This document shows, in pieces, positions 14,372 to 54,721 of a stretch of DNA of 64,000 nucleotides (its first letter is position 1; each line of letters opens with the position of its first letter). This DNA comes from Terriglobia bacterium. Its GTDB lineage: Bacteria; Acidobacteriota; Terriglobia; JAJPHL01; JAPKYU01. Made by a program: the position numbers and the translations under genes. The stretch is from positions 352,001-416,000 of the forward strand of contig CBDBKE010000003.1 of the NCBI GenBank assembly GCA_965206645.1. The letters run 5' to 3'. The notes beneath the pieces are model-generated. The model ran no database searches and was not told where the DNA came from. It worked only from the letters and a program-made list of their open reading frames with translations.

Positions 14372-14454
14372 CAATGCGCTGATTGCTCTTGAACCCTGTT
14401 GGCTGCAAGCAGGCGCTGGCCTGATGGCAACGATCGCGCCACCGATTTCTTTGG

Positions 14455-14483
14455 TTGACAAGGTGCGGGGTGGGTGCTATAAA
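14455..14483 (+). promoter_or_regulatory. Sigma70-type promoter of the HU gene
   Basis: TTGACA (14455-14460), 17 nt, TATAAA (14478-14483); AGGAGG RBS downstream. Confidence 0.85.
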
Positions 14484-14530
14484 CCCGCCGCAATCTGCTT
14501 TACCGCTGTAACAACCAGGAGGATGTCTTC

Positions 14531-14815
14531 ATGAATAAGGGAGACTTGATTGAGCGGGTTTCGAACGATGCTGGCATCAGCAAGGTGCAGGCCAACCGCG
14601 CCCTGGACGCGCTGGTAGAAGGCGTTACCGGCGCTCTCAAGAAGGGAGGCCGGGTAACCCTGGTCGGGTTTGGCACCTTTTCCACTTCTCACCGCAAGGC
14701 GCGCACCGGACGCAATCCACAGAACGGACGGCCACTGAAGATCGCCGCCCGGCGCGTGGCCAAGTTCGCGCCCGGCGCCGAACTGAAAGCCGCAGTCAAC
14801 AGGAGCAAGAAGTAG
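14531..14815 (+). CDS. hup: HU family DNA-binding protein
   Basis: MNKGDLI, VTLVGFGTF, RKARTGRNPQNG, KFAPGAELK. Confidence 0.98.
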   Translation: MNKGDLIERVSNDAGISKVQANRALDALVEGVTGALKKGGRVTLVGFGTFSTSHRKARTGRNPQNGRPLKIAARRVAKFAPGAELKAAVNRSKK

Positions 14816-14923
14816 CTTCCCACCATTGGGTCGCGGAAGGACGCGCAGAGTCATGCTCTGAGGCGTCGTGCCGCGACCTCTCGCTGGGGAAAATCCCCCT
14901 TCCCCCTCCCTGGCCGCGAGCCA

Positions 14924-15631
14924 TTGGAACAGCGGGTCACCATCGCCGTTCCCGGCGCGGTTCCCGGGGCCGAGCGCGTCTCGGCGGCCTTGGCCGGAGA
15001 GCCCGCCTCACGCACCATCGCCGTGTTTGCCCACGGCGCGGGCAGCGGCATGGATTCCGAGTTCATGCGGGTGTTCCACGACGGCCTGGCTGAGCGCGGC
15101 TGCTTGGCGGTGCGCTTCAATTTCCCTTACAAGGAAGCCAAACGGAAACTGCCAGACCGGCGGCCACTGTTGGAAACCTGCTATCGTGCCGCGGCCGACT
15201 TCGCGCGCGGGCAATCGAAGCTGCCTGCCCCTCGACAGCCGAAAATTGTGCTAGGCGGCAAGTCCATGGGCGGGCGCATCGCCTCCCATCTGGTCGCCGC
15301 CGGCTACCCCGCCCACGCGCTGGTGTTTCTGGGTTATCCGCTCCACCCGCCCGGCAAGCCGCAGCAGATCCGGGACCAGCACCTGTACTCCATTCGCTGC
15401 CCGATGCTATTCCTGTCCGGGACCCGAGATGCCTTTGCCCAAAGGGATTTGTTGGTCCCGGTCGTCGAACGGCTCGCCGGCAGTGGACCCGGACGCCGTG
15501 CCACGTTGGTCTGGATTGAGGACGGAGACCACTCCTTCCGCGTCCGCGGCCGGCCGCAGACACAGGTCTACACCGAAGCGCTGGACACCATCGTTGGCTG
15601 GCTGACGCAGGTACTGAAACCTGAGAGCTGA
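14924..15631 (+). CDS. Alpha/beta hydrolase (KANSL3-like/dienelactone hydrolase-like)
   Basis: HGAG, RFNFPY, GGKSMGGR nucleophile elbow, GYPLHPPGK, GTRD, GDHSF. Confidence 0.92.
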   Translation: MEQRVTIAVPGAVPGAERVSAALAGEPASRTIAVFAHGAGSGMDSEFMRVFHDGLAERGCLAVRFNFPYKEAKRKLPDRRPLLETCYRAAADFARGQSKLPAPRQPKIVLGGKSMGGRIASHLVAAGYPAHALVFLGYPLHPPGKPQQIRDQHLYSIRCPMLFLSGTRDAFAQRDLLVPVVERLAGSGPGRRATLVWIEDGDHSFRVRGRPQTQVYTEALDTIVGWLTQVLKPES

Positions 15632-15651: not shown

Positions 15652-16182
15652 CTACTTGGCGCCTTTGAAAGCCTTCGCCAGTACCCCGGCCACGGAAATC
15701 ATAGTGGTGAGGTCTTTGATGGTGAAATCAGGACCCGATGCCGGGGCAGTCTTGCCCTTGCGAGAGACCTGGACCACCCCTACCGCCTTGCCATCCACCA
15801 CCAAAGGTGCGCTCATGATCTTCTGAATGGGGCTGCCCTTGGTCTCGGAGCTCAGCTCGATGGCCTCAAAAATTGTCGGGTGTTTTTGGGCGGGGAAATT
15901 GTTGATCATCTCCGGCCGCTTCTCGCGTACGGTCCGCACCGCCAGCGAGGCGGTGCTGGTCATCGGGATGCTGCCCACTTTTTGCAGCTTTAACGGATAG
16001 ATAAAGGAAAGCACGGCCCCGCTGTGGGTCAGGTGCAGGACGGCCACTTCGTCCAATTTCACAAGGAAGGCCTTGGAGAGTTCGGCGACAATTTTTCCCA
16101 GAACCTGCCCGGACAGACCCCCTCCGGACTTGGCGGCTTCATCAACCAGTCTGGACAACCCTGCAGTCAGTGCGGCACCCAT
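15652..16182 (-). CDS. Stand-alone GAF-domain protein
   Basis: IMSAPLVVDGKAVGVVQV...DFT..DL GAF C-terminal pattern; GGGAGG RBS. Confidence 0.8.
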   Translation of the reverse strand: MGAALTAGLSRLVDEAAKSGGGLSGQVLGKIVAELSKAFLVKLDEVAVLHLTHSGAVLSFIYPLKLQKVGSIPMTSTASLAVRTVREKRPEMINNFPAQKHPTIFEAIELSSETKGSPIQKIMSAPLVVDGKAVGVVQVSRKGKTAPASGPDFTIKDLTTMISVAGVLAKAFKGAK

Positions 16183-16217
16183 AATGTCCTCCCGGGGAGC
16201 GCCCCATTTTATAGCGG

Positions 16218-16251
16218 AAAGAAGCTACCAAACAAAAGAAGCTACCAAACA
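16218..16251. repeat. Perfect 17-bp tandem duplication
   Basis: AAAGAAGCTACCAAACA x2 (16218-16234, 16235-16251). Confidence 0.9.
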
Positions 16252-16322
16252 AGGGTAACTGATCATCCGCAACCGTGCCCTTCCGGGGTGGTAGGCCCCG
16301 GGGGGCTCATCGGGTGTTGACC

Positions 16323-17177
16323 TCAGTCGAAAACAACGGTCTTGTTCCCGTAAGTCAACACTCGATGAGCCAGATGCAGGCGCACTGCGCGGGCCAGAAC
16401 CACTCGTTCCAGATCCTTCCCCTTGCGAATCAGATCCTGGACTGAGTCACGGTGGCTCACGCGCGCGACTTTCTGTTCAATGATCGGACCTTCATCCAGA
16501 TCCATTGTCACGTAGTGAGAGGTGGCTCCGATCAGCTTCACGCCACGTTGGAAAGCCTGGTGGTAGGCTTGGCCCCTCGCAAAGGCCGGAAGAAAGGAAT
16601 GGTGGATATTGATGATCCGATTGGGAAAGGCGGCGACGAAATCCTCGCTCAGAATCTGCATATAGCGGGCCAGCACGATCAGGTCAATTCCTCTGGCCCG
16701 CAGCTCGCCGATCTCCCTGGCCTCCTGTTCCTTCTTGCTGGCCGCGGTAATGGGGAAGTGAAGGAACGGGATTCCGAACTCCTGCGCCACCGCATTGGCC
16801 TCCAGATGATTGCTGACGACCATTGCGATCTCGGCCTGGAACTCGCCGGCCCGGTGCCGGAGCAGTAGATCCTGGAGGCAATGCAGCATCCTGGAGGCGA
16901 AGATCGCGAGTTTCGGCGCGTCATCGCTGAAGTGGACCTCGAACTGTATCTGGTGCTCTTGGGCCAGCGGCTGAAAACGCGCGGCGATTTGCGCGCGTGG
17001 GATCTCGAACCCCTCCAGATCCCATTCCATCCGCGCCAGAAACACCCCGGTCTCGAGATCCGTGTGCTGGTCGGCGTCCAGAATGTTACCGCCGTGGCGA
17101 AAGATGAACCCGGAGATCTTGGCCACGAGCCCCTTCTGGTCGGGGCAGAAGACTAACAACGTCGCGGTCTCGCGCAT
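16323..17177 (-). CDS. purU: Formyltetrahydrofolate deformylase
   Basis: N-terminal ACT (CPDQKGLVA), HCLQDLL, VSNH, VLARYMQILS, INIHHSFLP, GATSHYVT.LDEGPII, GNKTVVF. Confidence 0.98.
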   Translation of the reverse strand: MRETATLLVFCPDQKGLVAKISGFIFRHGGNILDADQHTDLETGVFLARMEWDLEGFEIPRAQIAARFQPLAQEHQIQFEVHFSDDAPKLAIFASRMLHCLQDLLLRHRAGEFQAEIAMVVSNHLEANAVAQEFGIPFLHFPITAASKKEQEAREIGELRARGIDLIVLARYMQILSEDFVAAFPNRIINIHHSFLPAFARGQAYHQAFQRGVKLIGATSHYVTMDLDEGPIIEQKVARVSHRDSVQDLIRKGKDLERVVLARAVRLHLAHRVLTYGNKTVVFD

Positions 17178-17904
17178 GGGGACGGTTCGACAGATGCTTC
17201 CTCAGATCGTCTCGCGAGGAAACGATGTGCTCGGTCATGGCCCGCCGCGCTTCCTCGGGGTCACCTTTCTTGAGGGCCCGCAAGATTTTCTTGTGCTCGG
17301 CGAGGGAAACAGCGGCTCGCCGGGTCGAGTCGCTGGCCGGGGAAGACGCCAGGGTCTCCCGGATAAAGGCCTGCAGATAGCCCCGGATGGTGGTCAGCAG
17401 GTTGTGTAGGATCGAGTTCTGCGTCGCCCGGGCGATGCCCAGGTGGAACCGCAGGTCACTTTCCAGGTATTTCTCTGGATCGGCCAGCGATTTCTCCATG
17501 CCCTGAAGGGCCACTTCGATGTCGCGCAGGTCTTTCTTCGTTGCCTTCTGGGCAGCCAGATCGGCCGTTTGCGACTCCAGCATCAACCGGGTTTCCACCA
17601 GGTCCTCGACTACCTTGCGGTCCAGCAGCAGGCCCCACTGAAAGACCCGCTCCAGATAGCGGCCCGGGTCGAGGCAAACGAAGGTTCCTTCGCCCGGGTG
17701 CGATTCCAGGATCCCCATCACCGAGAGCGACCGCAGTGCCTCCCGAACCGACGTCCGGCCCACGCGGAACTGCCGGCACAGCTCCTTCTCTGAAGGGATG
17801 TGGTCGCCCGGCTTGAAAACGCTGCTCGCAATCAGAGCAGTGATCTGCTCGACGATGCCCTCGCTGAGCAACCTGCGGGCGACTGGCTGGAGAGACTCAA
17901 CCAT
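17086..17904 (-). CDS. FadR/GntR family transcriptional regulator
   Basis: PGDHIPSEKELCRQFRVGRTSVREAL winged HTH; FCD domain (ETRLMLE, DLRFH..IA.ATQN, EH..IL.AL, M.EH). Confidence 0.95.
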   Translation of the reverse strand: MVESLQPVARRLLSEGIVEQITALIASSVFKPGDHIPSEKELCRQFRVGRTSVREALRSLSVMGILESHPGEGTFVCLDPGRYLERVFQWGLLLDRKVVEDLVETRLMLESQTADLAAQKATKKDLRDIEVALQGMEKSLADPEKYLESDLRFHLGIARATQNSILHNLLTTIRGYLQAFIRETLASSPASDSTRRAAVSLAEHKKILRALKKGDPEEARRAMTEHIVSSRDDLRKHLSNRPHARDRDVVSLLPRPEGARGQDLRVHLSPRR

Positions 17905-17926
17905 CGGCTTTACACCTTCCTGGGGC

Positions 17927-17977
17927 TTTACAGCTTGCTGCCAACTGGGGTATACTAAGGTGTCAGCTTAGCAGACA
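17927..17977 (+). promoter_or_regulatory. Putative promoter and GntR-type operator of the methyltransfer operon
   Basis: TTTACA (17927-32), 18 nt, TATACT (17951-56), followed by imperfect palindrome TGTCAG-CTTAG-CAGACA (17961-17977). Confidence 0.6.
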
Positions 17978-18041
17978 AGCAGGCAGGATGTCAAACGTGA
18001 CTCCCTGCCGGCCGGCACTCTCTGCCAGGAGGATCCTGACT

Positions 18042-18674
18042 ATGGGCCGAACGCTGGATCTGGGTAACCGCGTCGAACTGGTCTCGATGGATCCCCATTG
18101 CCAGGACATCACCGTTGCTCTCTATCGCCAGGATGGCGGTCACCAGCCGGAATACTTGGTGCACAGCTACAGCCGGCTGGAAGGCGTTCGCGAACGAGTC
18201 GAATTTCTGGCCCGGGCGCTCGAGAAGCTGGCGGGGGCGGAGCGGACGGACGCTCGGCTCCGCTTCTCCTGTGGCTCGGCGCACCAGGCTGGGGCCAAGC
18301 GTGGTTTTCTGGAGGCATGCAAGCTGCCCTCCACCGCGGCGCTCGAACCGAGGCCGCTCTCCGCCCTGGACAAACGGTCGGGCCGAAACATCGCCGTGGC
18401 GAGTCTGGGGGCGGGCGTCTACCAGCTGACGGCAGACGGGCCCAAGGAAGACAAGTCTAAGCGGGTGGAAGCCATCGCAGCCGGATTCCGGAAGCTAGCC
18501 GAGATGTCACCGGTGGAAGGCAGCGCCGACCGGGTGGCATTCCCCTGCGGGCAGATCCACGATGCGCTGGTCGGGTTGTTGCTTGTTCGCGCCTTGAACC
18601 TGCGCGCGGTGTTGCGCGAAGATGAGGCAGCTACCTCCCGTGGCCAGCTGGTAGCACCGAGCCAGCAAAAGTAA
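18042..18674 (+). CDS. Uncharacterised protein with two F-x-C-G-x-x-H motifs
   Basis: AGGAGG RBS at 18027-32 before ATG 18042; first gene of the operon; motifs FSCGSAH and FPCGQIH. Confidence 0.85.
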   Translation: MGRTLDLGNRVELVSMDPHCQDITVALYRQDGGHQPEYLVHSYSRLEGVRERVEFLARALEKLAGAERTDARLRFSCGSAHQAGAKRGFLEACKLPSTAALEPRPLSALDKRSGRNIAVASLGAGVYQLTADGPKEDKSKRVEAIAAGFRKLAEMSPVEGSADRVAFPCGQIHDALVGLLLVRALNLRAVLREDEAATSRGQLVAPSQQK

Positions 18675-18690
18675 TTCTAAGGAGAATGAG

Positions 18691-19728
18691 ATGGTCGGAC
18701 CAATGACGAGTCGCCAGCGCGTGCTGGCCGCCCTGCGTCGTGAGCCGGTGGACCGCACGCCGGTCTGCAACCCCACCTCGGTAGCCACCGTGGAGCTCAT
18801 GGACCTGGTGAACGCGCCCTTCCCGGACGCCAACCGCAAGCCGGAACTGATGGCGCGGCTGGCCGCCACCGGACACACCGAGCTCGGCTTCGACACCATC
18901 ATGCCGGTCTTCAGTATCATTCAGGAGTCCTCGGCGCTGGGTTGCAAGATCCAGTGGGAGCAGAAGGACAACTGGCCGACGGTGAGAATGCGCGAGCCGA
19001 TCTTCCAGAAGCCGGAAGACATCCGGATTCCCCCGGACCTGCTGAAGCATCCCGACATGCAGTGCGTGATCCAGGCCATCAAGATTCTGCGCCGGGAGTT
19101 CGGCGACGAGGTGGCGATCGTTGGTAAGACGATGGGGCCCTGGTCGCTGGGCTACCACTGCTTCGGCGTGGAGCCGTTCCTGCTGCTGTCGCTGGATGAC
19201 CCGGGTGCCACCAAACAGTGCCTGGAGAAACTCAAGCAGGTCACCATTGACTTTGGCCTGGCCCAGATCGAAGCCGGCGCCGACGCCCTCACCCTGCCCG
19301 ACCACGCCACCGGCGACCTGGTCAGCGGCGAGTACTACCGGCGCTACCTGCGCGACATGCACATCGAGTTTGTCGAGCGGATCCCGATCCCGCTGATTAT
19401 GCACATCTGTGGCCACACGGTGGACCGGATGGAGTACATCGCCCAAACCGGATTCGCGGCGTTTCACTACGACTCCAAGAACCAGCCGGCCGAGTCGATG
19501 GCGATCATGAAGAACCGCATCTCGCTGGTGGGAAATATCAACAATCCGGAGACCCTGTATTCGAGGGGCCCTGAGCAAGTCCGGCAAGAGGTTTGGAAGA
19601 ACCTGGACGCGGGCGTGCAGTTGGTGGGCCCGGAGTGCGCCATCCCGCTGCAGACTACGGTCGAGAACCTCAAGGAGATTCCCGGGGCCGTGCGCGAGTG
19701 GCACCGGCAGCACGCCTCGGCCAACTAG
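18691..19728 (+). CDS. MtaA/CmuA-family methylcobamide methyltransferase (UroD fold, Zn)
   Basis: MTSRQRVLAAL..EPVDRTPV start, GPWSL, AQIEAGAD, Zn ligands MHICG and GPECAIP, GNINN. Confidence 0.93.
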   Translation: MVGPMTSRQRVLAALRREPVDRTPVCNPTSVATVELMDLVNAPFPDANRKPELMARLAATGHTELGFDTIMPVFSIIQESSALGCKIQWEQKDNWPTVRMREPIFQKPEDIRIPPDLLKHPDMQCVIQAIKILRREFGDEVAIVGKTMGPWSLGYHCFGVEPFLLLSLDDPGATKQCLEKLKQVTIDFGLAQIEAGADALTLPDHATGDLVSGEYYRRYLRDMHIEFVERIPIPLIMHICGHTVDRMEYIAQTGFAAFHYDSKNQPAESMAIMKNRISLVGNINNPETLYSRGPEQVRQEVWKNLDAGVQLVGPECAIPLQTTVENLKEIPGAVREWHRQHASAN

Positions 19729-19749
19729 GAACAGGCTTAGGAACACACT

Positions 19750-20499
19750 ATGGCGGAACTCAGCGACATTTCCAACGACTTCATCCGGCAGGAGATCGAA
19801 GAGTACATCGAGCGGCCGGAGGAGCGGAAGCGCATGATTGACACCTTCGCGAAGGTCAAGCCGAAAATGCAGACCATTGCGGCGGCGCTGATTGACGGCG
19901 ACAACGGCACGGTAGATCAACTGACCAAAGAGGCGCTGGAGGAGGGGACCGTGGCGCTGGAGGTGATGGACGACGGCTTGATTGCCGGCATGGGAATTGT
20001 CGGCATCAAGTTCCGGGAGAACTTCATCTTCGTGCCGGAAGTTCTGGCCTGCGCGCGGGCAATGAAGGCGGGCATGGCCTACATTGAGCCCATCCTGTCG
20101 GCCTCCGGCGTTAAGCCCATTGCCAAGGTCGTCATGGGCACCGTCAAAGGGGACCTGCACGACATCGGCAAGAACCTGTGCATCATGATGTTGCGAGGCA
20201 CCGGCTTTGTGGTGATTGACCTGGGAGTGGACACCTCGGCGGACCGGTTCATTGAGGCCGTCGAGGAGCACGAGGCCCCCCTGATGGGGATGTCCGCCCT
20301 GCTGACCACCACCATGCCCAACATGGGCAAGACGATCGAAGCCTTCATTGACGCCGACCTGCGAGACAACGTGAAAATCATGGTCGGGGGCGCGCCTGTC
20401 ACGCAGGACTTTGCCGACGACATGGGAGCCGACGGTTACGGCAAGGACGCAATGGCGTGTGTCGCGCTGGCCAAGCGGCTGATGGGGGTGGCGGTCTAG
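19750..20499 (+). CDS. Corrinoid (B12-binding) methyl-carrier protein
   Basis: Cap domain GLIAGMGIVG.KF...IFVPEVL; GTVKGDLHDIGKNL (DxHxxG); MSALLTTTM; VGGAPVTQ; GADGY..DA. Confidence 0.97.
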   Translation: MAELSDISNDFIRQEIEEYIERPEERKRMIDTFAKVKPKMQTIAAALIDGDNGTVDQLTKEALEEGTVALEVMDDGLIAGMGIVGIKFRENFIFVPEVLACARAMKAGMAYIEPILSASGVKPIAKVVMGTVKGDLHDIGKNLCIMMLRGTGFVVIDLGVDTSADRFIEAVEEHEAPLMGMSALLTTTMPNMGKTIEAFIDADLRDNVKIMVGGAPVTQDFADDMGADGYGKDAMACVALAKRLMGVAV

Positions 20500-20515
20500 G
20501 CCTTGACGGGACGCC

Positions 20516-20758
20516 ATGCAAAAAATCGACCAACACGAGTACCGAAAACGCCTGGACCGGCTCACCGAAATCCTGACGGGGATCTCGGCGCGCGCCGACG
20601 AGCTGTCTCTCCGGCGTTGCCCTTACAAGAATCGCCTGGACCAATGCACGGCGCAGTTTGGCTGCCGCAATAAGCGCAAGCCCAAGCAGGCTGGGGAGCT
20701 GCCCGTGTGCGCCAGCGACGACAAGCTGGATTACCGAAAGGCGTGGGAAACTGCCTGA
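20516..20758 (+). CDS. Small four-cysteine protein of unknown function
   Basis: 80 aa filling the gap between the corrinoid and RACo genes; C-x8-C-x5-C-x14-C. Confidence 0.8.
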   Translation: MQKIDQHEYRKRLDRLTEILTGISARADELSLRRCPYKNRLDQCTAQFGCRNKRKPKQAGELPVCASDDKLDYRKAWETA

Positions 20759-20781
20759 CCCCGGGAACCTCCTGAACAAAG

Positions 20782-22413
20782 ATGGCCCACATCTGCTACG
20801 ACAGCAGCCGCTGCAGCCTGGAGCGCGGTCGAACCGTCTTCGACTATGCCGACGAGCTCGCCATCCAGGTGCCCACCTCGTGCGGCCGTAGCGGTGTCTG
20901 TCACGAATGCATCGTGGAAATCAAGCGCGGCCTGGAAGCCCTGAGTCCGCGCAGCGAGGCGGAAGACTTCCTGCGGGAGAACTTCCGGCTGGCCTGCCAG
21001 GCGACAATCCAAAATCTCGACATTGACGTCGAGTTCGCACTGCTCCGCCGGCGTCCGAAAATCCTGACCCGTTCCGCGCCCACCGCGGTTGAACTGGATC
21101 CGCTGGTCACTCGCGCCGGAGATAAAGTCCTCTACGACGGCGCGGTGATCGACGACTACCGTGGCCACCTCTACGGCTTGGCCATCGACCTGGGCACCAC
21201 CACCATCGTCATCGAGCTGGCGGATCTGGAGACCGGCGAGGTGGTTTGCCTGGTTTCGCTCGAGAACCCGCAGCGCTTCGGCGGCAGCGACATCATGCAC
21301 CGCATCTCCTACGATTCGGGCCAGTACCAGGGCGAGTTACACAAAAGCGTGATCCGGGAGGTCAATTACGAGCTGAAGGAGATGTACCGGGCGCTGGGGA
21401 TTAGCCGCCACCAGATTTATGAGACGGTGCTGGTGGGCAACTCCACCATGCGCGACCTGTTTTTCAACCTGGACGTGCAGTCGATCGGCCAGCGGCCCTA
21501 CAAGTCCCTGGTCGAGCAGGAATACCTGGCCGGGAAGCGGCAGACGACCGCGCTGATCGAGCTGGCCCATCGCCTGGGCCTGCTGACACATCCGAAGGCC
21601 CGCATCTTCGGGGCTCCCTTGGTGGCCAGCCACGTAGGCGCCGACGTGGTTGCCGACCTGGTAGCGATCGATATCGCCTCGCAGCGCGACCCGGTGATGT
21701 TGGTGGACGTGGGCACCAATACGGAGGTGGTGGTGGGCCATGCCGGCCGACTGTTGGCCGCCTCCTGCCCCGCCGGTCCGGCCTTTGAGGGCGGCCTTAT
21801 CAAGTACGGGATGACCGCCGGCGACGGAGCTATCGAGGCACTCGAGCTGAATGGGAGCGCCTGGAAGTACCGCACCATCGGCGAGGTTCCACCCACGGGA
21901 ATCTGCGGCTCGGGCCTGATTGATTTGCTTGCCGAGCTGCGCCGCCACGAGCGGATGACACCCAAAGGTGTCTTTGCCGACAAGCAACGCGAGCTCCCTA
22001 TCGTGCCGGAACACGGCATCACTTTTTCCCGCCTGGACGCCAGCAATCTGGCCCAGGCCAAAGGCGCCAATTACTGCGGCCAGTTTATTGTGCTGCGCCA
22101 GTTCGGCGTGTGCCCGGCCGACATCAGCCGGCTCTACCTGGCCGGCGGCTTCGCCAACTACATCAACGTGCGGAATGCGATCGAGATCGGGTTCCTGGCG
22201 CCGGTACCTGAGGACCGCGTGGTCAAGGTAGGCAACTCCGCGGTCGCCGGAGCGCGCCAGATGCTGCTCTCACGCAGGAAACGCCGCGCCATCGAAGAAC
22301 TGGTTCAGCGCATCGAGCACATTGAGCTCGAAATGACCCCCGACTTTTTTGACGTCTTCGTCGAAGCCTGCCAATTTAAGCCCATGCCGGCGGCGTTCGG
22401 AGGCAAGACGTGA
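20782..22413 (+). CDS. ASKHA-domain reductive activator of corrinoid proteins (RACo/RamA-like, DUF4445) with N-terminal 2Fe-2S domain
   Basis: SCGRSGVCHEC...RLACQ ferredoxin; AIDLGTTT, NPQRFGGSDIMHRI, VGADV, DVGTNTE, CPAGPAFEG, GICGSG, LAGGF, GNSA..GA. Confidence 0.95.
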   Translation: MAHICYDSSRCSLERGRTVFDYADELAIQVPTSCGRSGVCHECIVEIKRGLEALSPRSEAEDFLRENFRLACQATIQNLDIDVEFALLRRRPKILTRSAPTAVELDPLVTRAGDKVLYDGAVIDDYRGHLYGLAIDLGTTTIVIELADLETGEVVCLVSLENPQRFGGSDIMHRISYDSGQYQGELHKSVIREVNYELKEMYRALGISRHQIYETVLVGNSTMRDLFFNLDVQSIGQRPYKSLVEQEYLAGKRQTTALIELAHRLGLLTHPKARIFGAPLVASHVGADVVADLVAIDIASQRDPVMLVDVGTNTEVVVGHAGRLLAASCPAGPAFEGGLIKYGMTAGDGAIEALELNGSAWKYRTIGEVPPTGICGSGLIDLLAELRRHERMTPKGVFADKQRELPIVPEHGITFSRLDASNLAQAKGANYCGQFIVLRQFGVCPADISRLYLAGGFANYINVRNAIEIGFLAPVPEDRVVKVGNSAVAGARQMLLSRRKRRAIEELVQRIEHIELEMTPDFFDVFVEACQFKPMPAAFGGKT

Positions 22414-23957
22414 ACGAATCGCCCGCACCCACGCGGCCATCTTCCGGAGCTTGGAGCAAGCGCACATTCCGGCACCTGCTGGAGGAAACCTCCAGTTTCG
22501 TCACCGTGGTCGAGCTGGTGACTTCCCGGGGGCTGATCACGGAGCGCAGCGGTCGCCGCATTCTGGAAATGGCGCGATTGCTGGCCGAGCATCCTCGCTT
22601 CCACGCCCTGAGCATCACGGACAACCCCGGCGGCCACGCTATGCTCAGCGCCGACACCCTGGGTACGGACCTGATCTCCCGCGGCCAGGAGGTCATCATC
22701 CACCTCTCCTGCAAGGACTGGAACCGCAACGCCCTGGAGAGCCGCGGCTGGAAGCTGTCCAGCGAAGGTTTTCACAACGTGCTGGCACTCTCGGGCGACT
22801 ACCCGGTGACCGGACACCAGGGTCAGGCCGCCCCGGTCTTTGACCTTGATTCGGTCAGCCTGCTGGAAATGTTCTCCCAGATGGAGGGGACCAAATTTTT
22901 CCTCGGCTCGGTGGTGAACAATTACAAGCGGTATGAGGGCGAGGTGATGCCGCAGTACTTCAAGCTGGCCAAGAAGATCGAGTCTGGCGCCCGCTTCATC
23001 ATCAACCAGATCGGCTACGACGCGCGCAAGCAGGATGAGCTACTGCGCTACATGGCGCTGAAGGGACTCCAAGTGCCCGTGCTGTGCAATGTATACGTCC
23101 TCAGCGCCTCCGCCTCACGCTTCTTCCACGCTGGCCGGATTCCCGGCGCCGTGGTCACCGACGACCTGCTGGCACTGGCCGAGGAGCGGGGAGCCTCGCC
23201 CGACAAGGGCAAGGCATTCTTCCTGGAGTTCGCCGCCAAGCAGTGCGCCATTGCCCGGGGACTCGGCTATCGGGGGGTCTACCTGGGGGGGCATATGCGG
23301 TTCGAAGACTACGAGCGGATCCTCCAGATCTGGGACAGCTTCGGCGACAATGACTGGAAGGAGTTTGCCCGCCAGATTCGTTTCGCTCAGCCTGAGGAGT
23401 TCTACTACTTTGAGCCCGATCCAGAGACGGGCCTCAGTTCCTCGGAGGTCAACCGCGAGTACTTACGCTCGAAAGCCTCGCCGGCCGGCGCGCCGCTCTC
23501 CTACCGGCTCAACCGCCTGGTGCACGGGAAGGTATTCGAGAAGGACAGTTCGGGGTTCCGGGCAGGAAAGGCGCTCTACCAGTCGGTGGAGGGGTCGCCG
23601 CGGATCCGGAAGACGCTACACGCGGCTGAGCACGCGTTCAAAATCCTCGCCTTCGACTGTCAGGACTGCGGCGACTGCTCGCTCCCGGACATTGCCTACC
23701 TCTGTCCCGAGTCGCAATGCGTGAAGAACCAGCGCAACGGTCCCTGCGGAGGAACACGGCAGGGCCTGTGCGAAGTTGGAGAGAAGGAGTGCATCTGGAG
23801 CCGCGCCTACCAGCGCCTGAAGGCCTATGGCGAGGAGGAGCAGATGCTCGACCGGCCGGTGGTCTTCCGCAATGGGGCGCTGCGAGGCACCAGCGCCTGG
23901 GCCAATGCCTTCCTCGAGCGGGATCATAACGCCAGCAAGAAGCCGAAGGAGCAATGA
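22410..23957 (+). CDS. metF: Methylene-THF reductase MetF fused to a C-terminal MetV-like Cys-rich domain
   Basis: ITDNPGG, HLSCKDWNR, NVLALSGDYP, KKIESGARFIINQ; C-terminal CQDCGDC..CPESQCVKNQRNGPCGG..CEV..CIW. Confidence 0.9.
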   Translation: MNESPAPTRPSSGAWSKRTFRHLLEETSSFVTVVELVTSRGLITERSGRRILEMARLLAEHPRFHALSITDNPGGHAMLSADTLGTDLISRGQEVIIHLSCKDWNRNALESRGWKLSSEGFHNVLALSGDYPVTGHQGQAAPVFDLDSVSLLEMFSQMEGTKFFLGSVVNNYKRYEGEVMPQYFKLAKKIESGARFIINQIGYDARKQDELLRYMALKGLQVPVLCNVYVLSASASRFFHAGRIPGAVVTDDLLALAEERGASPDKGKAFFLEFAAKQCAIARGLGYRGVYLGGHMRFEDYERILQIWDSFGDNDWKEFARQIRFAQPEEFYYFEPDPETGLSSSEVNREYLRSKASPAGAPLSYRLNRLVHGKVFEKDSSGFRAGKALYQSVEGSPRIRKTLHAAEHAFKILAFDCQDCGDCSLPDIAYLCPESQCVKNQRNGPCGGTRQGLCEVGEKECIWSRAYQRLKAYGEEEQMLDRPVVFRNGALRGTSAWANAFLERDHNASKKPKEQ

Positions 23958-25006
23958 AACCTCAAGGCTTGAACAAAGAGTTCGTTGTCATCGGGGAAAA
24001 CATCCACACGACCCGCGTCTTGCGCCGCGCTGGCAAGCTGGTCACCACCACTCCCAGCGGCGAGGAGGCGGTCCGCTACATCAGCGCGAGCGGAGAAACC
24101 CGCTACCTGATCATCCCGAAAGAGGTCAAGCGCCAGCAGGACTATGAAGAGGGACGCGTCAAGCACGTGGCCATCGCGGTGCGGGCGGCCATGTCGGGCG
24201 CCGAGCCCGCCGCCAGCGAAGGAATGCAGTACCTGCGCGCGCTGATGGCGCGGCAGCTCAAAGGCGGCGCCGACTTCCTGGACTTGAACGTGGACGAGGT
24301 CTCCCTCTACCCGGACAAACAGCTCGAAGCGATGCGCTGGCTGGTGCGCGCCATCGAACCGCTGGCGCCGGTGCCGCTCTCGATTGATTCCTCCAATCTG
24401 GACACCATTCGCGCCGGCATTCAGGCCTGCTCGGGGAGCACAGGCCGGCCCATGCTGAACTCCGCCTCGCTGGAACGGCTGGAGGCGTTGGACCTGGCCC
24501 GGGAGCGAAACCTGTCGGTGATCGTCACGGCCTCTGGCTCCAGCGGCATGCCCCAAAACACCGAGGAGCGAGTGGCCAACGCCTCCCAGGTGATCGATAC
24601 CGCCCTGGCTAAGAGCCTCCCCATCGAGGACCTTTATGTGGACGGCCTGGTCTTCCCCATCTCGGTGGACGGTCAGTTCGGAAACCATTACCTGGAGGCG
24701 ATCCGCCAGCTGCGTGAGAAGTACGGCGAGAAGATTCACCTGACGGGCGGCTTGAGCAACGTGTCGTTTGGGCTGCCCTGCCGCCGGCTGATCAACGAGG
24801 CGTTCATCAATCTCTCCGTGGAAGCCGGCGCCGACTGCGGCATCGTGGACCCGGTGGGTAACGACCTGAACCGGGTGTTCGCAGCCGACAAAAATTCCCA
24901 GCCCTATCAGCTGGCCCAGGACATGCTGCTGGGACACGATCGCAACTGCAAAAACTTCCTCCGCGCCTACCGCAAGGGGGAACTGGAGCCGGTCACGGCT
25001 AGGTAG
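23954..25006 (+). CDS. Pterin-binding methyl-THF:corrinoid methyltransferase (AcsE/MetH folate-domain-like)
   Basis: VIGENIH, Q..GGADFLDLNV, LSIDS, MLNS, LYVD.LVFPI, GGLSNVSFGLP.R, GIVDP. Confidence 0.92.
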   Translation: MKPQGLNKEFVVIGENIHTTRVLRRAGKLVTTTPSGEEAVRYISASGETRYLIIPKEVKRQQDYEEGRVKHVAIAVRAAMSGAEPAASEGMQYLRALMARQLKGGADFLDLNVDEVSLYPDKQLEAMRWLVRAIEPLAPVPLSIDSSNLDTIRAGIQACSGSTGRPMLNSASLERLEALDLARERNLSVIVTASGSSGMPQNTEERVANASQVIDTALAKSLPIEDLYVDGLVFPISVDGQFGNHYLEAIRQLREKYGEKIHLTGGLSNVSFGLPCRRLINEAFINLSVEAGADCGIVDPVGNDLNRVFAADKNSQPYQLAQDMLLGHDRNCKNFLRAYRKGELEPVTAR

Positions 25007-25014
25007 GGAAACAC

Positions 25015-25281
25015 ATGGCCAAATACCAGATCCTCTACTGGAAGCATATCCCGGCGCAGGTGAAGGTGTCCGCCGAGGGCCAGAGAACTCTGTCGCGGCC
25101 GATGCCCGACCGGTTCCAGGAAGAGATTGACAAGATCGCCATGAGGGAAGGCTTGGCCGGCACCGACGACTATCTGAATCAGTGGAACTGGACGCCGAAA
25201 CAGGAACGGCCGGGCACTCCAGAACAGGTGGCTGAGGCCCTGATTCAGGAACTGGAGCAGCAGGTGGAGTTCACTGAATGA
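25015..25281 (+). CDS. Small 'virulence factor' domain (PF13769-like) protein
   Basis: ILYWKHIPAQVKV...PDRFQEEIDKIAM..G..GTDDYL.QW resembles this family as recalled; last gene of the operon. Confidence 0.75.
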   Translation: MAKYQILYWKHIPAQVKVSAEGQRTLSRPMPDRFQEEIDKIAMREGLAGTDDYLNQWNWTPKQERPGTPEQVAEALIQELEQQVEFTE

Positions 25282-25291
25282 TTAGGTCCGT

Positions 25292-25373
25292 TGTCATTCC
25301 AAGCGGAGCGAGGGATCTGCTTTACGACTGGTTTCGGTCGCGACGTGACAAAGGAAGCCTCCTTGGGCTTCCT
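25292..25373. repeat. Half REP-like element plus hairpin at operon end
   Basis: TGTCATTCCAAGCGGAGCGAGGGATCTGCTTT resembles a common intergenic palindromic repeat; AGGAAGCC-TCCTTG-GGCTTCCT stem-loop at 25352-25373. Confidence 0.5.
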
Positions 25374-25419
25374 CCGGAGTTGAAGAGCCATTTCGAATCT
25401 CGGATTTCGGATTGAAAAG

Positions 25420-26688
25420 TTGAGAAGGAGTTTCTTTCATTCGACGGTCCCCGCCGCGTCCCTTTTATTCTTCCTGGCCCTCAGTGTTCTGGCCTGCGGT
25501 CCAGCAAAGCCGAAATCCGAAACGCAAAATCCGAAATCTGAAGTGCGCAATCCACAATCGAAAGACTGGCTGAGTCAGGCGCGCCAAATTCACCGCCGCG
25601 CTATTGTCATTGACAGCCACGCCGACACGACGCAGAGGTTGCTAGAGGAGAACCTGGACCTGAGCCTCCGTGACCCGGAAGGCCACCTGGACCTGCCCCG
25701 GATGCGCGAGGGAGGCCTGGACGCCGTCTTCTTCTCCATCTATGTGCAGCCGAAGCACAAACCCCATTACCTGCGCCGCGCCCTGGAGCAGATTGACGCC
25801 GTGTTGGATCAGGTGGAGCGCCACTCGCGCGAGCTGGAACTGGCGCGCACGGCGGCCGACATCCGCCGCATCCATCGCGCCGGCAAGCTGGCCGCGCTGA
25901 TGGGAGTTGAAGGCGGACACGCCATCGAAGACAGGGCGGGCGTGCTCGACGTCTTCTATCGCCTGGGTGTGCGCTACATGACCCTGACCTGGTCCTTCTC
26001 CACCTCCTGGGCCGGCTCCTCCGGAGATGCCGGCCGCAAGCGCGGCTTGAACGAGAAGGGCCGCGCCATCGTTGCCCGCATGAACCAGCTGGGCATGATG
26101 GTGGATGTCTCCCACGTCTCCGACCAGACCTTCTATGACGCGCTCAAGGTGGCGCGCGCCCCGGTGATCGCGAGCCACAGCTCCTGCCGCGCCCTCGCCA
26201 ATGTGCCGCGCAACATGAACGACGCAATGATCCAGGTGCTGGCTGAGAACGACGGGGTGATCCAGATCAATTTTTACTCCGCGTTCTTAGACTCCGACTA
26301 CGCAGCAGCCTGGAGCAAGGTGAGCGCTGAGTTCCGGCGGGAGCGGCGCGAACTGGAGCAGCAGTGGCAGGGCGACCCGGCCCGGCTGGTCCGCGAGGAG
26401 CGCCGCCTGGAGCTGGCCTACGACGCCCGCCTCCCCCGGCCGGGCGTGGAACGAATCGCCGACCACATTGACCACGTGGTGAAGCTGGTGGGCGTGGACT
26501 CCGTGGGGCTTGGCTCGGACTTCGACGGTGCAACTATGCCGCGCGGCATGGCGGACGTCTCCCAGTTGCCGCGCCTCACCGCCGAACTGCTGCGGCGCGG
26601 CTACTCGGAGCCGGACCTGGTAAAAATTCTCGGGGGCAACCTACTGCGCGTCATGGAGCGCGTCGAACAGGTTGCATTGAAGCCGTGA
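25420..26688 (+). CDS. Membrane dipeptidase (peptidase M19), probable lipoprotein
   Basis: [54 protein letters not shown]; VLAC lipobox; start uncertain. Confidence 0.93.
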
Positions 26689-30335: not shown

Positions 30336-31496
30336 ATGATTCGTAAGCCACGGCTTTTCACTCCCGGGCCGACACCCCTGTTGCCGGAGGCCCGGCAGGC
30401 GCTGGCGGCAGCCGATCTGCACCACCGCAGCGCCGAATTCCGCCGCATTTTCCGCAACGTTCTGGAGGACTTGAAGTATTTCTACGGGACCGAGAACCAG
30501 GTGATCCTGTTCACCAGTTCCGGGACCGGCGCCATGGAGGCAGCCATTTCCAACCTGTTCTCCGCCGGCGAGCGCGTCCTGGTCGCTACCTCGGGCAAGT
30601 TCGGTGAGCGCTGGGTGGAGTTGGCGAATGCCTTCGGGCTGGAGGTGGAATGCGTGGCCGCGCCCTACGGCCAGGCGGTGCCGGCAGCCGCGGTGGCTGA
30701 GAAGATGCGCGGCGGTGAATTCCGCGGCGTCTTCATCCAGGCCACGGAAAGCTCCACTGGGGTCCGCCAGGATGTGCGCGGCATCGCCGAAGCTGCACGC
30801 GCCGCCCGGGGTGAGCCCTTGATGGTGGTGGACGCCGTCACCGGCCTGGGCACCACCGCGCTCGAAGTCGACGAATGGGGCCTGGACGTGGTGATCAGCG
30901 GTTCGCAGAAGGCACTGATGATTCCACCCGGGCTGGCCTTTGCCAGCGTCAGCGAGCGCGCCTGGCGACGCATGGAGACTGCCCGGCTGCCGCGTTACTA
31001 CTTTGACTTCCGCAAGGAACGCAGCGCTGCGCAGAACGGCGAAGCCGCCTTCACCCCGGCTACCGCTCTGGTGCTGGGTCTGGCGGAAGTCTTGCGCTAC
31101 GTGCGCGAGCTGGGCCGCGAGCGCCTGATCGCCAACGCCCACCTGCTGGCCGAAGCCACCCGGGCGGCAGTGAGAGCGCTCGGCCTGAAGTTGTTTGCTC
31201 CCGACTCTCCTTCGGACGCCATCACGGCCGTCTGCGCACCCGAGGGCCTGGACTCGGGTGCCATCCTCCAGCAGGTGCGGTCGCAATTCGGCCTGGCGCT
31301 AGCCAACGGACAAAGCAGCCTCAAAGGCCGCATCTTTCGCATCGCTCACCTGGGCTACGTCGATCTCTCCGAAACGCTGGGCCTGCTGGCCTCCCTGGAG
31401 ATCGCGCTCCAGACGCTGCACGTGCCGGTGTCGCTGGGTGCGGGGGTGCGTGCCGCCCAAGAAATCTACTTGCGCGAGACCGAGAAAACCGAATGA
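30336..31496 (+). CDS. Class V PLP aminotransferase (alanine-glyoxylate/serine-pyruvate type), likely serC substitute
   Basis: LFTPGPTP, SSGTGAME, ESSTGV, VDAVT, GSQKALMIPPG (PLP Lys), FRIAHLG; ATGA overlap with serA. Confidence 0.93.
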   Translation: MIRKPRLFTPGPTPLLPEARQALAAADLHHRSAEFRRIFRNVLEDLKYFYGTENQVILFTSSGTGAMEAAISNLFSAGERVLVATSGKFGERWVELANAFGLEVECVAAPYGQAVPAAAVAEKMRGGEFRGVFIQATESSTGVRQDVRGIAEAARAARGEPLMVVDAVTGLGTTALEVDEWGLDVVISGSQKALMIPPGLAFASVSERAWRRMETARLPRYYFDFRKERSAAQNGEAAFTPATALVLGLAEVLRYVRELGRERLIANAHLLAEATRAAVRALGLKLFAPDSPSDAITAVCAPEGLDSGAILQQVRSQFGLALANGQSSLKGRIFRIAHLGYVDLSETLGLLASLEIALQTLHVPVSLGAGVRAAQEIYLRETEKTE

Positions 31497-33094
31497 AGGT
31501 CGTCGTCGCCGAGAAGATTTCCCGTCGTGGCATCGAGTTGCTGAAGTCGGAGCGCTGGAAGGTCGTAGAAACCCCCAGCACCGAGGAGCTGCCGTGGGCG
31601 CTGAAGGATGCCGACGCGCTCATCTTGCGCGGGGGCGTCCAGGTTACAACCGAAGTATTGGAACGGGCGCCAACCCTGCGGGTGGTGGGACGAGCCGGCG
31701 TGGGCGTGGACAATGTGGACCTGGAGGCGGCCACCAAGCGAGGTGTGCTGGTGCTGAACACGCCAGGCGGCAACGCCGTCAGCGTCGCCGAACACACCTT
31801 GGCCCTGATGTTCGCGCTGGCGCGCGCGATTCCTCAGGCCAACCAGTCGGTCAAACAAGGCCGTTGGGAAAAGAAGCACTTCATGGGCCGCGAGCTGCGC
31901 GAGAAGACGCTGGGCGTCGTGGGCCTGGGCCGCACTGGGGTGGAGGTCGCCAAGCGGGCGCGCGCCCTGGAGATGAAGGTGCTAGCTCACGACCCCTATG
32001 TCACCCCGGTGGTGGCCTCGGAAGCCAACGCGGAGCTGGTCAGCCTGAAGCGGCTGCTGGCCGAGAGCGATTACATCAGCCTCCACGTGACGCTCACCCC
32101 GGAAACGGCCGGCCTGATTAACGCTGCCACTCTGGCCCGCATGAAGCCAGGCGTGCGGATCATCAACTGCGCCCGGGGCGAGGTGATCAACGAGCGCGAC
32201 CTGGCCGAGGCGATCCGAGCCGGTAAGGTGGCCGGTGCGGCCCTCGACGTCCTCCACCAGGAGCCGCCGTTGCCCAATCACCCCCTGGCGTCGTTGCCGC
32301 AAGTGATTGCCACGCCGCACATCGCCGGTTCCACTGAGGAGGCCCAGGAGGTGGTCGGCTATCGCATCGCCGAGCAGGTGCGCGAGTATCTCAAGCACGG
32401 GGTCATCATCAACGCGGTGAACGTGCCGGCGCCTTCGCCCGACGAATACCGTAAGCTACAGCCGCACCTGCAACTGGCCGAACGCCTGGGAGCGCTTCTG
32501 GCCCAAATCGCCGAGGGAAACCAGCTCGCAGTCCGCATCGCCTACTTTGGCAAACTGGCGGAGATGAATACCAGCCTGCTCCGCAACGCGGCGCTGAAAG
32601 GCGTGCTGAACCGGGTGCTGGCGGAGAAGGTCAACCTGGTGAATGCCGCCTCCATCGCGGCCGATCGGGGTATGCGGTTGGAAGAGAGCCGCAGCAGCAG
32701 TCGAGCTGAATTCACCGACTCCGTGCGGATCAGTCTGCAAACAGATCGCGCCGAAGCGGTAGCCGAGGGGACGGTGCTGCTGCACAATCCCTTCCCGCGC
32801 CTGCTGGCGGTGGACGGAATCCACATCGAGGCGCCGCTCACTGGCAATCTGCTGTTCTTCAAGAACACTGACGTCCCCGGAGTCATCGGGCGCATCGGGA
32901 CGCTGCTGGGCCGGCGCCGGGTCAACATCGCCAACTTCTCTCTGGGACGCCGTGAGAATAGCAGCCGCCGCAAGGGCCGGGTCGAGGCCGTGGCCGTGAT
33001 CCATTACGACGGCCCGCGCGTGTCCAACTCGGTGTTGGCGGAGCTGCGCAGAATCCCTGCGGTCCGTTTCGTGCGCGCCGTCGAAATCGGCTAG
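31493..33094 (+). CDS. serA: D-3-phosphoglycerate dehydrogenase (long form with ASB and ACT)
   Basis: GRAGVGVDNVD, NTPGGNAVSVAEH, GLGR.G, INCARG, TPHIAGSTEEAQ, DVPGVIG..NIA. Confidence 0.96.
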   Translation: MKVVVAEKISRRGIELLKSERWKVVETPSTEELPWALKDADALILRGGVQVTTEVLERAPTLRVVGRAGVGVDNVDLEAATKRGVLVLNTPGGNAVSVAEHTLALMFALARAIPQANQSVKQGRWEKKHFMGRELREKTLGVVGLGRTGVEVAKRARALEMKVLAHDPYVTPVVASEANAELVSLKRLLAESDYISLHVTLTPETAGLINAATLARMKPGVRIINCARGEVINERDLAEAIRAGKVAGAALDVLHQEPPLPNHPLASLPQVIATPHIAGSTEEAQEVVGYRIAEQVREYLKHGVIINAVNVPAPSPDEYRKLQPHLQLAERLGALLAQIAEGNQLAVRIAYFGKLAEMNTSLLRNAALKGVLNRVLAEKVNLVNAASIAADRGMRLEESRSSSRAEFTDSVRISLQTDRAEAVAEGTVLLHNPFPRLLAVDGIHIEAPLTGNLLFFKNTDVPGVIGRIGTLLGRRRVNIANFSLGRRENSSRRKGRVEAVAVIHYDGPRVSNSVLAELRRIPAVRFVRAVEIG

Positions 33095-54653: not shown

Positions 54654-54721
54654 CGGGCCACCTCCTGCTACTGGGGCTCCCATTGTACACTGTCCGGTTT
54701 GATTGGGAAGCGCCGAGCGCG

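Follow-up and report, generated by a model that had tools for sequence, protein, structure and literature searches.

A conserved corrinoid methyl-transfer operon with an MtaA-like enzyme and an orphan 210-residue protein: a candidate link between methylated sulfur, folate and methionine

Organization of the cluster

The DNA analyzed here is a 64,000-nucleotide (nt) stretch of the genome of a Terriglobia bacterium (contig CBDBKE010000003.1), referred to as the window; the source genome is 97.9% complete. Our subject is an operon within it that encodes proteins for methyl transfer between a corrinoid and folate. Eight plus-strand genes, with intergenic gaps of 8-23 nt and two 4-nt overlaps, diverge from a regulator gene and purU. 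An earlier annotation made from the letters of this DNA and its open reading frames (ORFs), hereafter the sequence-only reading, had named ten genes and described this packing and divergence; ORF calling together with Pfam and NCBIfam confirmed all of them, at the following coordinates (THF, tetrahydrofolate):

16323..17177, minus strand: purU, formyltetrahydrofolate deformylase (PF00551 and PF01842, ACT plus formyl transferase; TIGR00655, 379 bits against a cut-off of 286)
17086..17904, minus strand: gntR, GntR+FCD regulator (PF00392, PF07729; no NCBIfam equivalog at cut-off)
18042..18674, plus strand: unk210, orphan 210-residue protein, delimited by homologue alignment (longest ORF 17988-18674, 228 residues)
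18691..19728, plus strand: mtaA, MtaA/CmuA-family URO-D zinc methyltransferase, here the MtaA-like enzyme (PF01208, E 2.7e-65; TIGR01463, 254.3 bits against a cut-off of 235.4)
19750..20499, plus strand: corr, corrinoid (cobalamin-binding) methyl-carrier protein (PF02607 and PF02310; under all equivalog cut-offs)
20516..20758, plus strand: cys80, 80-residue Cys4 protein with four conserved cysteines
20782..22413, plus strand: raco, RACo/RamA-type ATP-dependent reductive activase (2Fe-2S, middle and ASKHA domains: PF00111, PF17651, PF14574)
22410..23957, plus strand: metFV, MTHFR (MetF) fused to a Cys-rich MTHFR_C (MetV-like, DUF5981; PF02219, PF12225)
23954..25006, plus strand: meTr, pterin-binding methyl-THF:corrinoid methyltransferase, AcsE/MtgD-like (PF00809; PRK07535, 191 bits, below the cut-off of 259)
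25015..25281, plus strand: vf88, 88-residue 'Virulence_fact' protein (PF13769)

The purU gene lies downstream of the regulator gene, the start of the former overlapping the end of the latter by 92 nt, and metFV and meTr overlap by 4 nt. The true unk210 gene spans 18042-18674 and encodes 210 residues, since 35 of 48 homologous ORFs start at residue 19 of the 228-residue ORF. Two labels of the sequence-only reading needed amendment. The regulator had been called fadR, and this name falls away because no FadR equivalog is matched at the NCBIfam cut-off; the 88-residue protein had been listed without a family, and it belongs to PF13769. The findings support the proposal of a regulated module that is self-contained, transfers methyl groups between corrinoid and folate and has its own ATP-dependent activase.

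The cluster is conserved across distant lineages

Contigs from one genome per species were searched with the MtaA-like protein, which matched at least 543 stretches, at least 502 of them encoding a relative. The best 80 loci (79-87% identity) were kept, so that the presence of this protein in 80/80 is by construction. The other window proteins were located on these 80 loci by tblastn, and the 56 loci with at least 9.5 kb downstream and at least 3 kb upstream are here called full. By record title, the loci are labeled Poribacteria (24), Latescibacterota (21), Acidobacteriota-type (20), Gemmatimonadota (6), Lentisphaeria (3) and Acidimicrobiia (2), with one locus each from Planctomycetota, Alphaproteobacteria, Opitutales and Ca. 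Versatilivorator. The nearest are labeled Terriglobia or Acidobacteriaceae, at 85-87% identity, in keeping with the acidobacterial origin that had been suspected. The cluster is syntenic in all 80 loci, across about ten differently labeled lineages, with the order unk210-mtaA-corr-cys80-raco-(metFV)-meTr-vf88; because the same order recurs in 80 loci, the arrangement is not due to chance. The genes recur as follows:

unk210: 79/80 loci, 56/56 full loci (upstream of mtaA; the 80th locus starts inside the gene pair)
corrinoid gene: 68/80 loci, 49/56 full loci
cys80: 62/80 loci, 48/56 full loci
RACo: 60/80 loci, 48/56 full loci
meTr: 50/80 loci, 45/56 full loci
vf88: 43/80 loci, 38/56 full loci
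metFV: 41/80 loci, 36/56 full loci
gntR: 52/80 loci, 42/56 full loci
purU: 4/80 loci, 4/56 full loci

Of the 45 full loci with meTr, 9 have no metFV in the cluster. Median identities are 81% for the MtaA-like enzyme, 82% for the corrinoid protein, 66% for RACo, 65% for MetFV, 60% for MeTr and 52% for unk210, which makes the MtaA-like enzyme and its corrinoid carrier the two most constrained proteins. Seven full loci, all from Poribacteria, hold the unk210-mtaA pair alone; one of these genomes, with a single copy of the MtaA-like gene, has its corrinoid/MeTr core at a distance of 4.4 Mb. As a check on selection bias, 121 genomes of the window's class (the class sample) were searched with MeTr. 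Orthologues (at least 58% identity) were found in 16 genomes, namely all 15 carriers of the MtaA-like gene and a further genome, 62% complete, from the window's genus.

The layout varies locally. One Acidobacteriota contig holds two cluster copies of the same layout ~63 kb apart (L041 and L045), the first cut by the contig end. In four Poribacteria loci a gene block is inserted between RACo and metFV (L056:14003-18335, L057:14851-18850, L070:15123-19105 and L027:13861-18998), comprising a PhyH-family dioxygenase, an Eco57I/N6-methylase-like protein of 510-520 residues and unnamed ORFs, with a DDE transposase added in L027; an HNH endonuclease lies between mtaA and the corrinoid gene in L057 and L070. 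An APH-family kinase is encoded just upstream of gntR in 11 loci (e.g. L021:5913-6917), and its N-terminus weakly matches S-methyl-5-thioribose kinase (61.8 bits against a cut-off of 275). Inserted genes of these kinds (PhyH, N6-methylase-like, HNH, transposase and APH-family kinase) were seen along with enolase-superfamily, aldo-keto reductase, HAD and amino-acid permease genes, and the insertions in the Poribacteria and Latescibacterota loci show no consistent catabolic theme that would serve as a substrate clue.

The MtaA-like enzyme and its small companions

Among solved structures, the MtaA-like protein is best matched, over its full length, by MtaA of M. mazei (4AY7; E 1.7e-54); the zinc ligands of 4AY7, His-x-Cys and a distal Cys, are aligned in it. 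Across 25 sequences H238 and C316 do not vary, and at least 90% retain C240. The protein misses the MtaA/MtbA equivalog cut-offs (NF040654, 234.8 against 400; NF041608, 198.3 against 600). Its gene is single-copy in each genome examined, and the only URO-D members of the source genome are hemE and the MtaA-like gene. Judged by these sequence features, the protein is a candidate substrate-side or thiol-side methyltransferase.

Published work on related enzymes gives this site a chemical context. His-Cys-Cys is kept by S-methyltransferases of the UroD superfamily, and Cys is replaced in the O-demethylases (PMC10418091); the haloalkane enzyme CdmB, whose structure has been solved, neither needs nor holds zinc (PMC13222342). 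MtpA of Methanosarcina acetivorans is an MtaA-family enzyme for a thioether/thiol carboxylate, not for coenzyme M (10.1101/548461). A His-Cys-Cys zinc enzyme of the MtaA type on the substrate side thus leads us to predict a sulfur substrate, thioether or thiol, rather than an O-methyl, N-methyl or halide compound. The MtpA/MtpC pair is like the window in that an MtaA-family enzyme has its own corrinoid protein and the compound is a thioether/thiol carboxylate; it is unlike the window in being archaeal and feeding methanogenesis, and the parts of its description that we compared mention no folate branch, RACo, MetFV or unk210 (10.1101/548461). As for MtaA itself (4AY7/4AY8), the host of the window enzyme is bacterial, and coenzyme M would not be expected there.

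The unk210 protein comprises two tandem α/β repeats, the internal duplication being detected by hhalign at 95.4% and E 1.7e-8, and an alignment of homologues reveals an invariant C-x3-H in each repeat (C77, H81, C169 and H173). It has no sequence relative in Pfam, NCBIfam or the Protein Data Bank (PDB): a per-member Pfam scan at E<=5 returned two single-member noise matches only, and the best hits of a PDB profile search were antibody light chains at E 0.05. All 548 homologue clusters are unnamed or 'hypothetical'. A profile search of 1.84 billion proteins gave 277 representatives (at 50% identity), near-equal in length and with no clear or informative fusion. The AlphaFold model (pLDDT 86.9, pTM 0.82) matched nothing in the PDB at E<=0.001 with Foldseek, and the top Z in a wide VIA-align search was 6.5 (to a urea carboxylase segment, BMC shell and HIT proteins), below the meaningful level. 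The adjacency of the two genes suggests that unk210 pairs physically with the MtaA-like enzyme.

The cysteines C35, C44, C50 and C65 of cys80 are kept in at least 95% of 62 sequences, and in 16 loci cys80 is fused in frame to the N-terminus of RACo. These fusions and the four conserved cysteines together assign cys80 to the activase.

Regulation and expression

The only sigma-70-like promoter site at 16000-26000 is TTTACA-18-TATACT at 17927-17956 on the plus strand, within the divergent intergenic region. One such site against 1.2 expected is no excess, its location being the one fitting feature. The interrupted palindrome TGTCAGCTTAGCAGACA follows the -10 hexamer directly, at 17961-17977, and its sequence makes it a likely GntR operator. 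The motif [TG]GTC[AT]GAC[CA] occurs in 44 of 46 gntR-unk210 intergenic regions of relatives, against a mean of 0.26 and a maximum of 2 in composition-preserving shuffles; its exact form is absent from the window. It fits TNGTNNNACNA, which we take to be the operator form of the FadR subfamily, and the predicted operator of the GntR/FCD protein is of the TTGTCAGACAA type.

At least part of the stretch is present in 20 public sequencing runs from nine studies, five of the runs being RNA libraries. Four RNA runs, from two studies, yielded contigs that match the window at 95% or more, some without differences, and that bridge the junctions unk210/mtaA, mtaA/corr, corr/cys80, cys80/raco and meTr/vf88. 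These contigs hint at expression of the operon; they indicate presence only, as DNA carry-over is possible and contig depth cannot rank genes.

The operon scaffold is shared with MttB-type systems

In Ruegeria pomeroyi, both glycine-betaine demethylation and methionine synthesis depend on MtgC and MtgD, MetF2 shows the strongest induction of any protein and is proposed to oxidize CH3-THF, and MtgE (PF02574) is the homocysteine module (Mausz et al., PMC12478193). Phaeobacter inhibens has a three-part split MetH with RamA-like and DUF1638 reactivation proteins and a PF02574 homocysteine module (Price et al., PMC5764234). The Mtg/MetF2/RamA system of Ruegeria, the split MetH of P. inhibens and the window share a separate corrinoid protein, a pterin-binding methyltransferase and a RamA/RACo activase, and likewise MetF beside the folate methyltransferase and the absence of a classical MetH; that the two characterized systems belong to aerobic or facultative bacteria is a further likeness. 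Both also encode a PF02574 module separately, for which the PF02574 protein of the source genome is a possible counterpart. The substrate enzyme of Ruegeria is of the MttB family (PF06253), whereas the window has the MtaA-like zinc enzyme and unk210 instead, and neither PF06253 nor DUF1638 (PF07796) has a match in the source genome. The window also differs from the Ruegeria hub in having a Cys4 protein beside the activase (fused to it in other loci), a fused MetF-MetV, and a single operon that includes every part, next to a GntR/FCD regulator gene.

As annotated in Paracoccus methylovorus and Sinorhizobium meliloti, an MttB-family gene is accompanied by genes for a cobalamin-binding protein, DUF1638, MTHFR_C, MTHFR, a methyl-THF:cobalamin methyltransferase and an ASKHA activase. 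The adjacency of MTHFR and folate methyltransferase is common to these annotations and the window, whose MeTr is ~31% identical to the Paracoccus and Sinorhizobium 'methyltetrahydrofolate cobalamin methyltransferase'. By annotation, the MttB-type cluster of S. meliloti is also like the window in having a PF13769 'virulence factor' and a formyl transferase, the former directly 5' of MTHFR_C, MTHFR and the methyl-THF:cobalamin methyltransferase; the PF13769 protein (vf88) is thus a recurrent companion of MetV-MetF-MeTr modules. The two annotated loci have an MttB-family enzyme and DUF1638 in place of the MtaA-like enzyme and unk210, and other regulators. The operon scaffold therefore matches that of the MttB-type clusters of Sinorhizobium and Paracoccus, that is MtgBCDE/MetF2/RamA, with the substrate side swapped. 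The sequence-only reading had held that the gene set matches none of the acetogen, cmu and mec systems exactly; the substrate-side enzyme indeed fits no characterized system. Synteny with a characterized system exists for the core, which is the MtgC/MtgD/MetF2/RamA scaffold, and does not extend to the MtaA-like enzyme and its 210-residue companion. No literature description of the cluster was found in a search that left aside the supplements of PMC12478193 and PMC10418091, where homologues are possibly listed.

Two other families bear on the substrate side. Type 1 mlp clusters resemble the window in that an S- or Se-methyl substrate has been proposed for them (PMC10418091). One rival explanation builds on this chemistry: the cluster would methylate a thiol, selenol or sulfide other than homocysteine, for detoxification, volatilization or biosynthesis, by passing the methyl group of CH3-THF through the corrinoid protein, and in reverse could recover sulfur or selenium from methyl sulfides or selenides. 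The His-Cys-Cys site suits such an acceptor, type 1 mlp has been argued to serve methylated sulfur or selenium compounds, and selenide is methylated in vitro by ClMlp2 (PMC10418091). In the available account, however, a type 1 mlp cluster combines two or three Mlp paralogues (Mlp2 and Mlp3 at the least), lacks a folate methyltransferase and belongs to an obligate anaerobe, usually one of the Firmicutes (PMC10418091), whereas the window has one URO-D enzyme besides hemE, a folate methyltransferase and MetFV, and such clusters belong to other phyla. Sulfur- or selenium-handling genes are also not conserved nearby, and we consider this explanation a slim prospect.

The cmu and Cdm systems share with the window a corrinoid-dependent methyl transfer to folate, and cmu has metF and purU nearby (PMC13222342). 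A methyl-halide dehalogenase of a split CmuA type would account for the score above the MtaA/CmuA subfamily cut-off, and its corrinoid protein, folate methyltransferase, metF and purU would be those of the cmu pathway as described in part by PMC13222342. CmuA is a methyltransferase-corrinoid fusion, whereas the window has two genes (18691-19728 and 19750-20499). CmuB is an MtrH-type enzyme, and the second methyltransferase of the window cluster is Pterin_bind (PF00809). The solved CdmB is zinc-free and grouped with the O-demethylases, whereas the zinc ligands are conserved here; in the acetogen O-demethylases Mtv, Odm and Vdm the Cys ligands are replaced or zinc is lacking, while the window enzyme keeps Cys (PMC10418091, PMC13222342). 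MecC, MecE and CmuA diverged early in the superfamily tree (PMC13222342), whereas the best PDB match here is MtaA. No cmuA-annotated plasmid was returned by tblastn at E<=1e-5, in a collection in which the presence of such a record is unconfirmed. A split CmuA is accordingly unlikely, and we give it hardly any weight.

The cluster and MetH are nearly complementary

The source genome has no MetH. TIGR02082 gave only partial matches, on separate genes (positions 2-321, 374-620, 641-859 and 731-822), and none beyond model position 859. Its homocysteine-methyltransferase domain (PF02574) is fused to MTHFR in a protein of the YitJ-type equivalog (760 bits) encoded outside the cluster, and the cluster supplies the other MetH-like parts, the B12 and pterin modules. 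A full MetE is present. The sequence-only reading had named a genome with no other methionine synthase among the things that would count against it; MetE is present in this genome, though related carriers are found without MetH and without full-length MetE. Among the 80 loci, 26 have a PF02574 homocysteine-methyltransferase gene inside the cluster or within ~1.5 kb of it, two of these genes being cut by the locus end; three further loci have distant PF02574 matches only (28-34%), and Pfam confirmation covers three loci.

In the class sample, MetH (E<=1e-100) occurs in 1/15 carriers (G071) vs 85/106 non-carriers, or 82/103 without three unpublished genomes (G096, G075 and G105). In the family f4, all three non-carriers have MetH, and in the window's own family so do the three cluster-free genera. 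Carriers from other lineages number five, four without MetH and one, labeled Planctomycetota, with it. Five f4 carriers (G011, G038, G079, G115 and G047) have neither MetH nor full MetE and encode short Meth_synt_2 proteins only (369-406 residues, ~100-116 bits), which could presumably be corrinoid-dependent, folate-independent methionine synthases. The cluster and MetH are thus nearly complementary in this sample, and in many bacteria of soils and sponges the cluster appears to replace the customary B12-dependent methionine synthase.

The sequence-only reading had taken PurU to imply oxidation and not methionine synthesis, a conclusion that the data do not support: purU is linked in 4/80 loci, 26/80 have a PF02574 gene, the source genome lacks MetH and the distribution complements MetH. 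The argument from PurU is weak because purU is rarely linked and the characterized relative is bidirectional. A purely catabolic demethylase would run from CH3-X through CH3-THF, CH2-THF and 10-formyl-THF to formate by PurU, with no role in methionine synthesis. It draws on the position of purU next to the operon and co-oriented with the regulator, on FolD, which a check proposed earlier did find encoded in the source genome, on the formyl transferase gene of the S. meliloti MttB-type cluster, and on the oxidative role proposed for R. pomeroyi MetF2 (PMC12478193). The rarity of purU linkage speaks against it, as do the absence of MetFV from 9/45 full loci with meTr, the in-cluster PF02574 genes, the complementarity to MetH, and the requirement of the core for methionine synthesis in the characterized relative (PMC12478193). 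We regard a solely catabolic role as improbable.

At the other extreme, the cluster might be a dedicated anabolic methionine synthase, in which MetF-MetV would produce CH3-THF, the pterin enzyme would methylate the corrinoid protein, the MtaA-like enzyme (with unk210) would methylate homocysteine, and RACo would replace reactivation by AdoMet. The cluster alone encodes a complete route from CH2-THF to S-CH3, and transfer from CH3-Co(III) to a thiolate is natural for MtaA-family enzymes (10.1101/548461). The near-complementarity with MetH, the carriers without full-length MetE and the single, extremely conserved MtaA-like copy also fit, and the Poribacteria unk210-mtaA pair adjoins cell-division genes. 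Yet a PF02574 homocysteine-binding gene, present in 26/80 clusters, would then be redundant, PF02574 being the proven homocysteine module of the P. inhibens split MetH (PMC5764234). The conserved effector-binding GntR/FCD regulator and its operator look inducible, catabolic MttB-type systems use the same scaffold, and the cluster stands beside MetH in G071 and G125 and beside MetE in the source genome. This explanation is the main rival of the function proposed below and is, in our view, doubtful.

Proposed function

We favor, with middling confidence, a reading in which the cluster encodes an MtaA-type variant of the modular corrinoid methyl hub known from aerobic Alphaproteobacteria; the hub would connect folate with an S-methyl or thiol compound and probably with methionine. 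The corrinoid protein would alternate between Co(I) and CH3-Co(III), with Co(I) regenerated by RACo and the Cys4 module cys80 at the expense of ATP; the pterin-binding enzyme would exchange the methyl group with THF, and MetF-MetV would interconvert CH3-THF and CH2-THF. On the substrate side, a His-Cys-Cys zinc MtaA-like methyltransferase with an obligatory 210-residue partner would take the place of the MttB-family enzyme. The corrinoid/MeTr/RACo core, with a PF02574 homocysteine-binding protein, would most likely also be the cell's B12-dependent methionine synthase, the PF02574 partner being the YitJ-like fusion elsewhere in the source genome and an in-cluster protein in many other phyla. 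The divergent FCD-type GntR regulator is predicted to control the operon through the conserved operator. By analogy with characterized relatives, and on the distributional evidence presented here, the core probably serves both demethylation and methionine synthesis. The in-cluster PF02574 genes and the inducible-looking regulation favor this hub over a dedicated methionine synthase; either reading accommodates the reaction direction that is easy for the family, the ultra-conserved single copy and the complementarity with MetH. What the sequences show directly is the gene content and its synteny, a conserved operator, the pattern of zinc ligands and a distribution complementary to that of MetH; how the methyl group flows, which compound is the substrate, whether unk210 and the MtaA-like enzyme pair physically and how the cluster ties in with methionine are deduced.

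Several observations weigh against such a hub. Methylation of Co(I) from a thioether is thermodynamically uphill (10.1101/548461), so the easy direction for the family is from CH3-Co to a thiol. A single copy per genome with ~81% identity across phyla is unlike the multi-paralogue families of substrate-side enzymes, and in the neighborhoods of the loci examined the cluster has no conserved association with a transporter or with a gene that would process a demethylated product. The full MetE makes the cluster dispensable for methionine in the source genome, and G071 and G125 hold cluster and MetH together. The complementarity with MetH comes from few independent lineages (family f4, the window's own genus and four more lineages with one genome each), relatives are not independent, and prototrophy of the carriers is an assumption. 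PF02574 proteins occur as extra copies in MetH-positive relatives without the cluster, so PF02574 in carriers is not diagnostic, and it was dropped as a marker of split MetH. Moreover, no SAM or B12 riboswitch was found in the window (at gathering score), near the yitJ-like gene, or in the 3 kb upstream of and into metE (at E<=0.01).

SBP56, the methanethiol-oxidase family, was considered as a co-occurring marker. It is present in 3/15 carriers of the MtaA-like gene and in G077 (incomplete, own genus), against 7 of the other 105 genomes; the association is limited to the window's own genus and absent from the f4 carriers, and was rejected as support, which again counts against the hub. The source-genome SBP56 gene (G000:C3:335148-336530, ~15.5-17 kb before the window's first base) is split over three frames with an internal stop. 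Three congeneric genomes have it intact (~479 residues), though in one of these a TAG falls within the match, and the family occurs in 11/121 genomes of the class sample.

Within the hub reading, a more specific and tentative proposal, which we consider possible though on balance unlikely, is that the MtaA-like enzyme and its 210-residue partner form a cobalamin-dependent methyl-sulfide methyltransferase of non-methanogenic bacteria. The pair would transfer a methyl group from methanethiol, dimethylsulfide (DMS), methylmercaptopropionate or a similar thioether to the corrinoid protein, from which it would pass to folate for oxidation or directly to homocysteine. Such an enzyme has been postulated for aerobic DMS degradation and, according to the part of that account consulted, was unidentified as of 2019 (PMC6548844).

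Other features of the window

A class-V aminotransferase and a D-3-phosphoglycerate dehydrogenase with an ACT domain are encoded at 30336-33094 on the plus strand, 5 kb downstream of the operon; serine synthesis is the usual source of one-carbon (C1) units, and linkage of these two genes to the operon was not seen in the other loci. A run of signaling genes at 50686-56779 encodes a triple-GAF protein, a GGDEF + HD-GYP-type protein and a GAF + HD protein, and is followed by a DDE transposase (PF13701) at 59238-60566. On the minus strand, 14477-14854 is a 125-residue ORF without a Pfam family. The bin that holds it (14404-15004) has the top summed contig depth outside the mtaA and corrinoid bins in 4/4 RNA-library runs, a depth that does not equate to expression.

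Implications

The kind of system described here is already known; its substrate-side pair, the MtaA-like enzyme and unk210, is the new part and is uncharacterized, and the cluster's two most constant proteins are thus without an assigned function. The system is widespread, as at least 502 stretches in the one-genome-per-species contigs encode a relative of the MtaA-like enzyme, and Verrucomicrobiota is among the labels of the 80 loci. Experiments could start directly from the operator, which is conserved, from the FCD regulator or from the orphan Cys/His protein with its two repeats. If the core is a B12-dependent methionine synthase, automated metabolic reconstructions based on MetH and MetE would mis-score carriers as methionine auxotrophs or as B12-independent, and the cobalamin demand of these bacteria would be underestimated. 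Were the MtaA-like pair to harvest S-methyl groups, a long-standing enzyme gap in volatile organic sulfur cycling would be closed. Should the methyl-sulfide reading be true, hundreds of soil, sediment and sponge-symbiont species could make methionine and C1 units from methylated sulfur without MetH.

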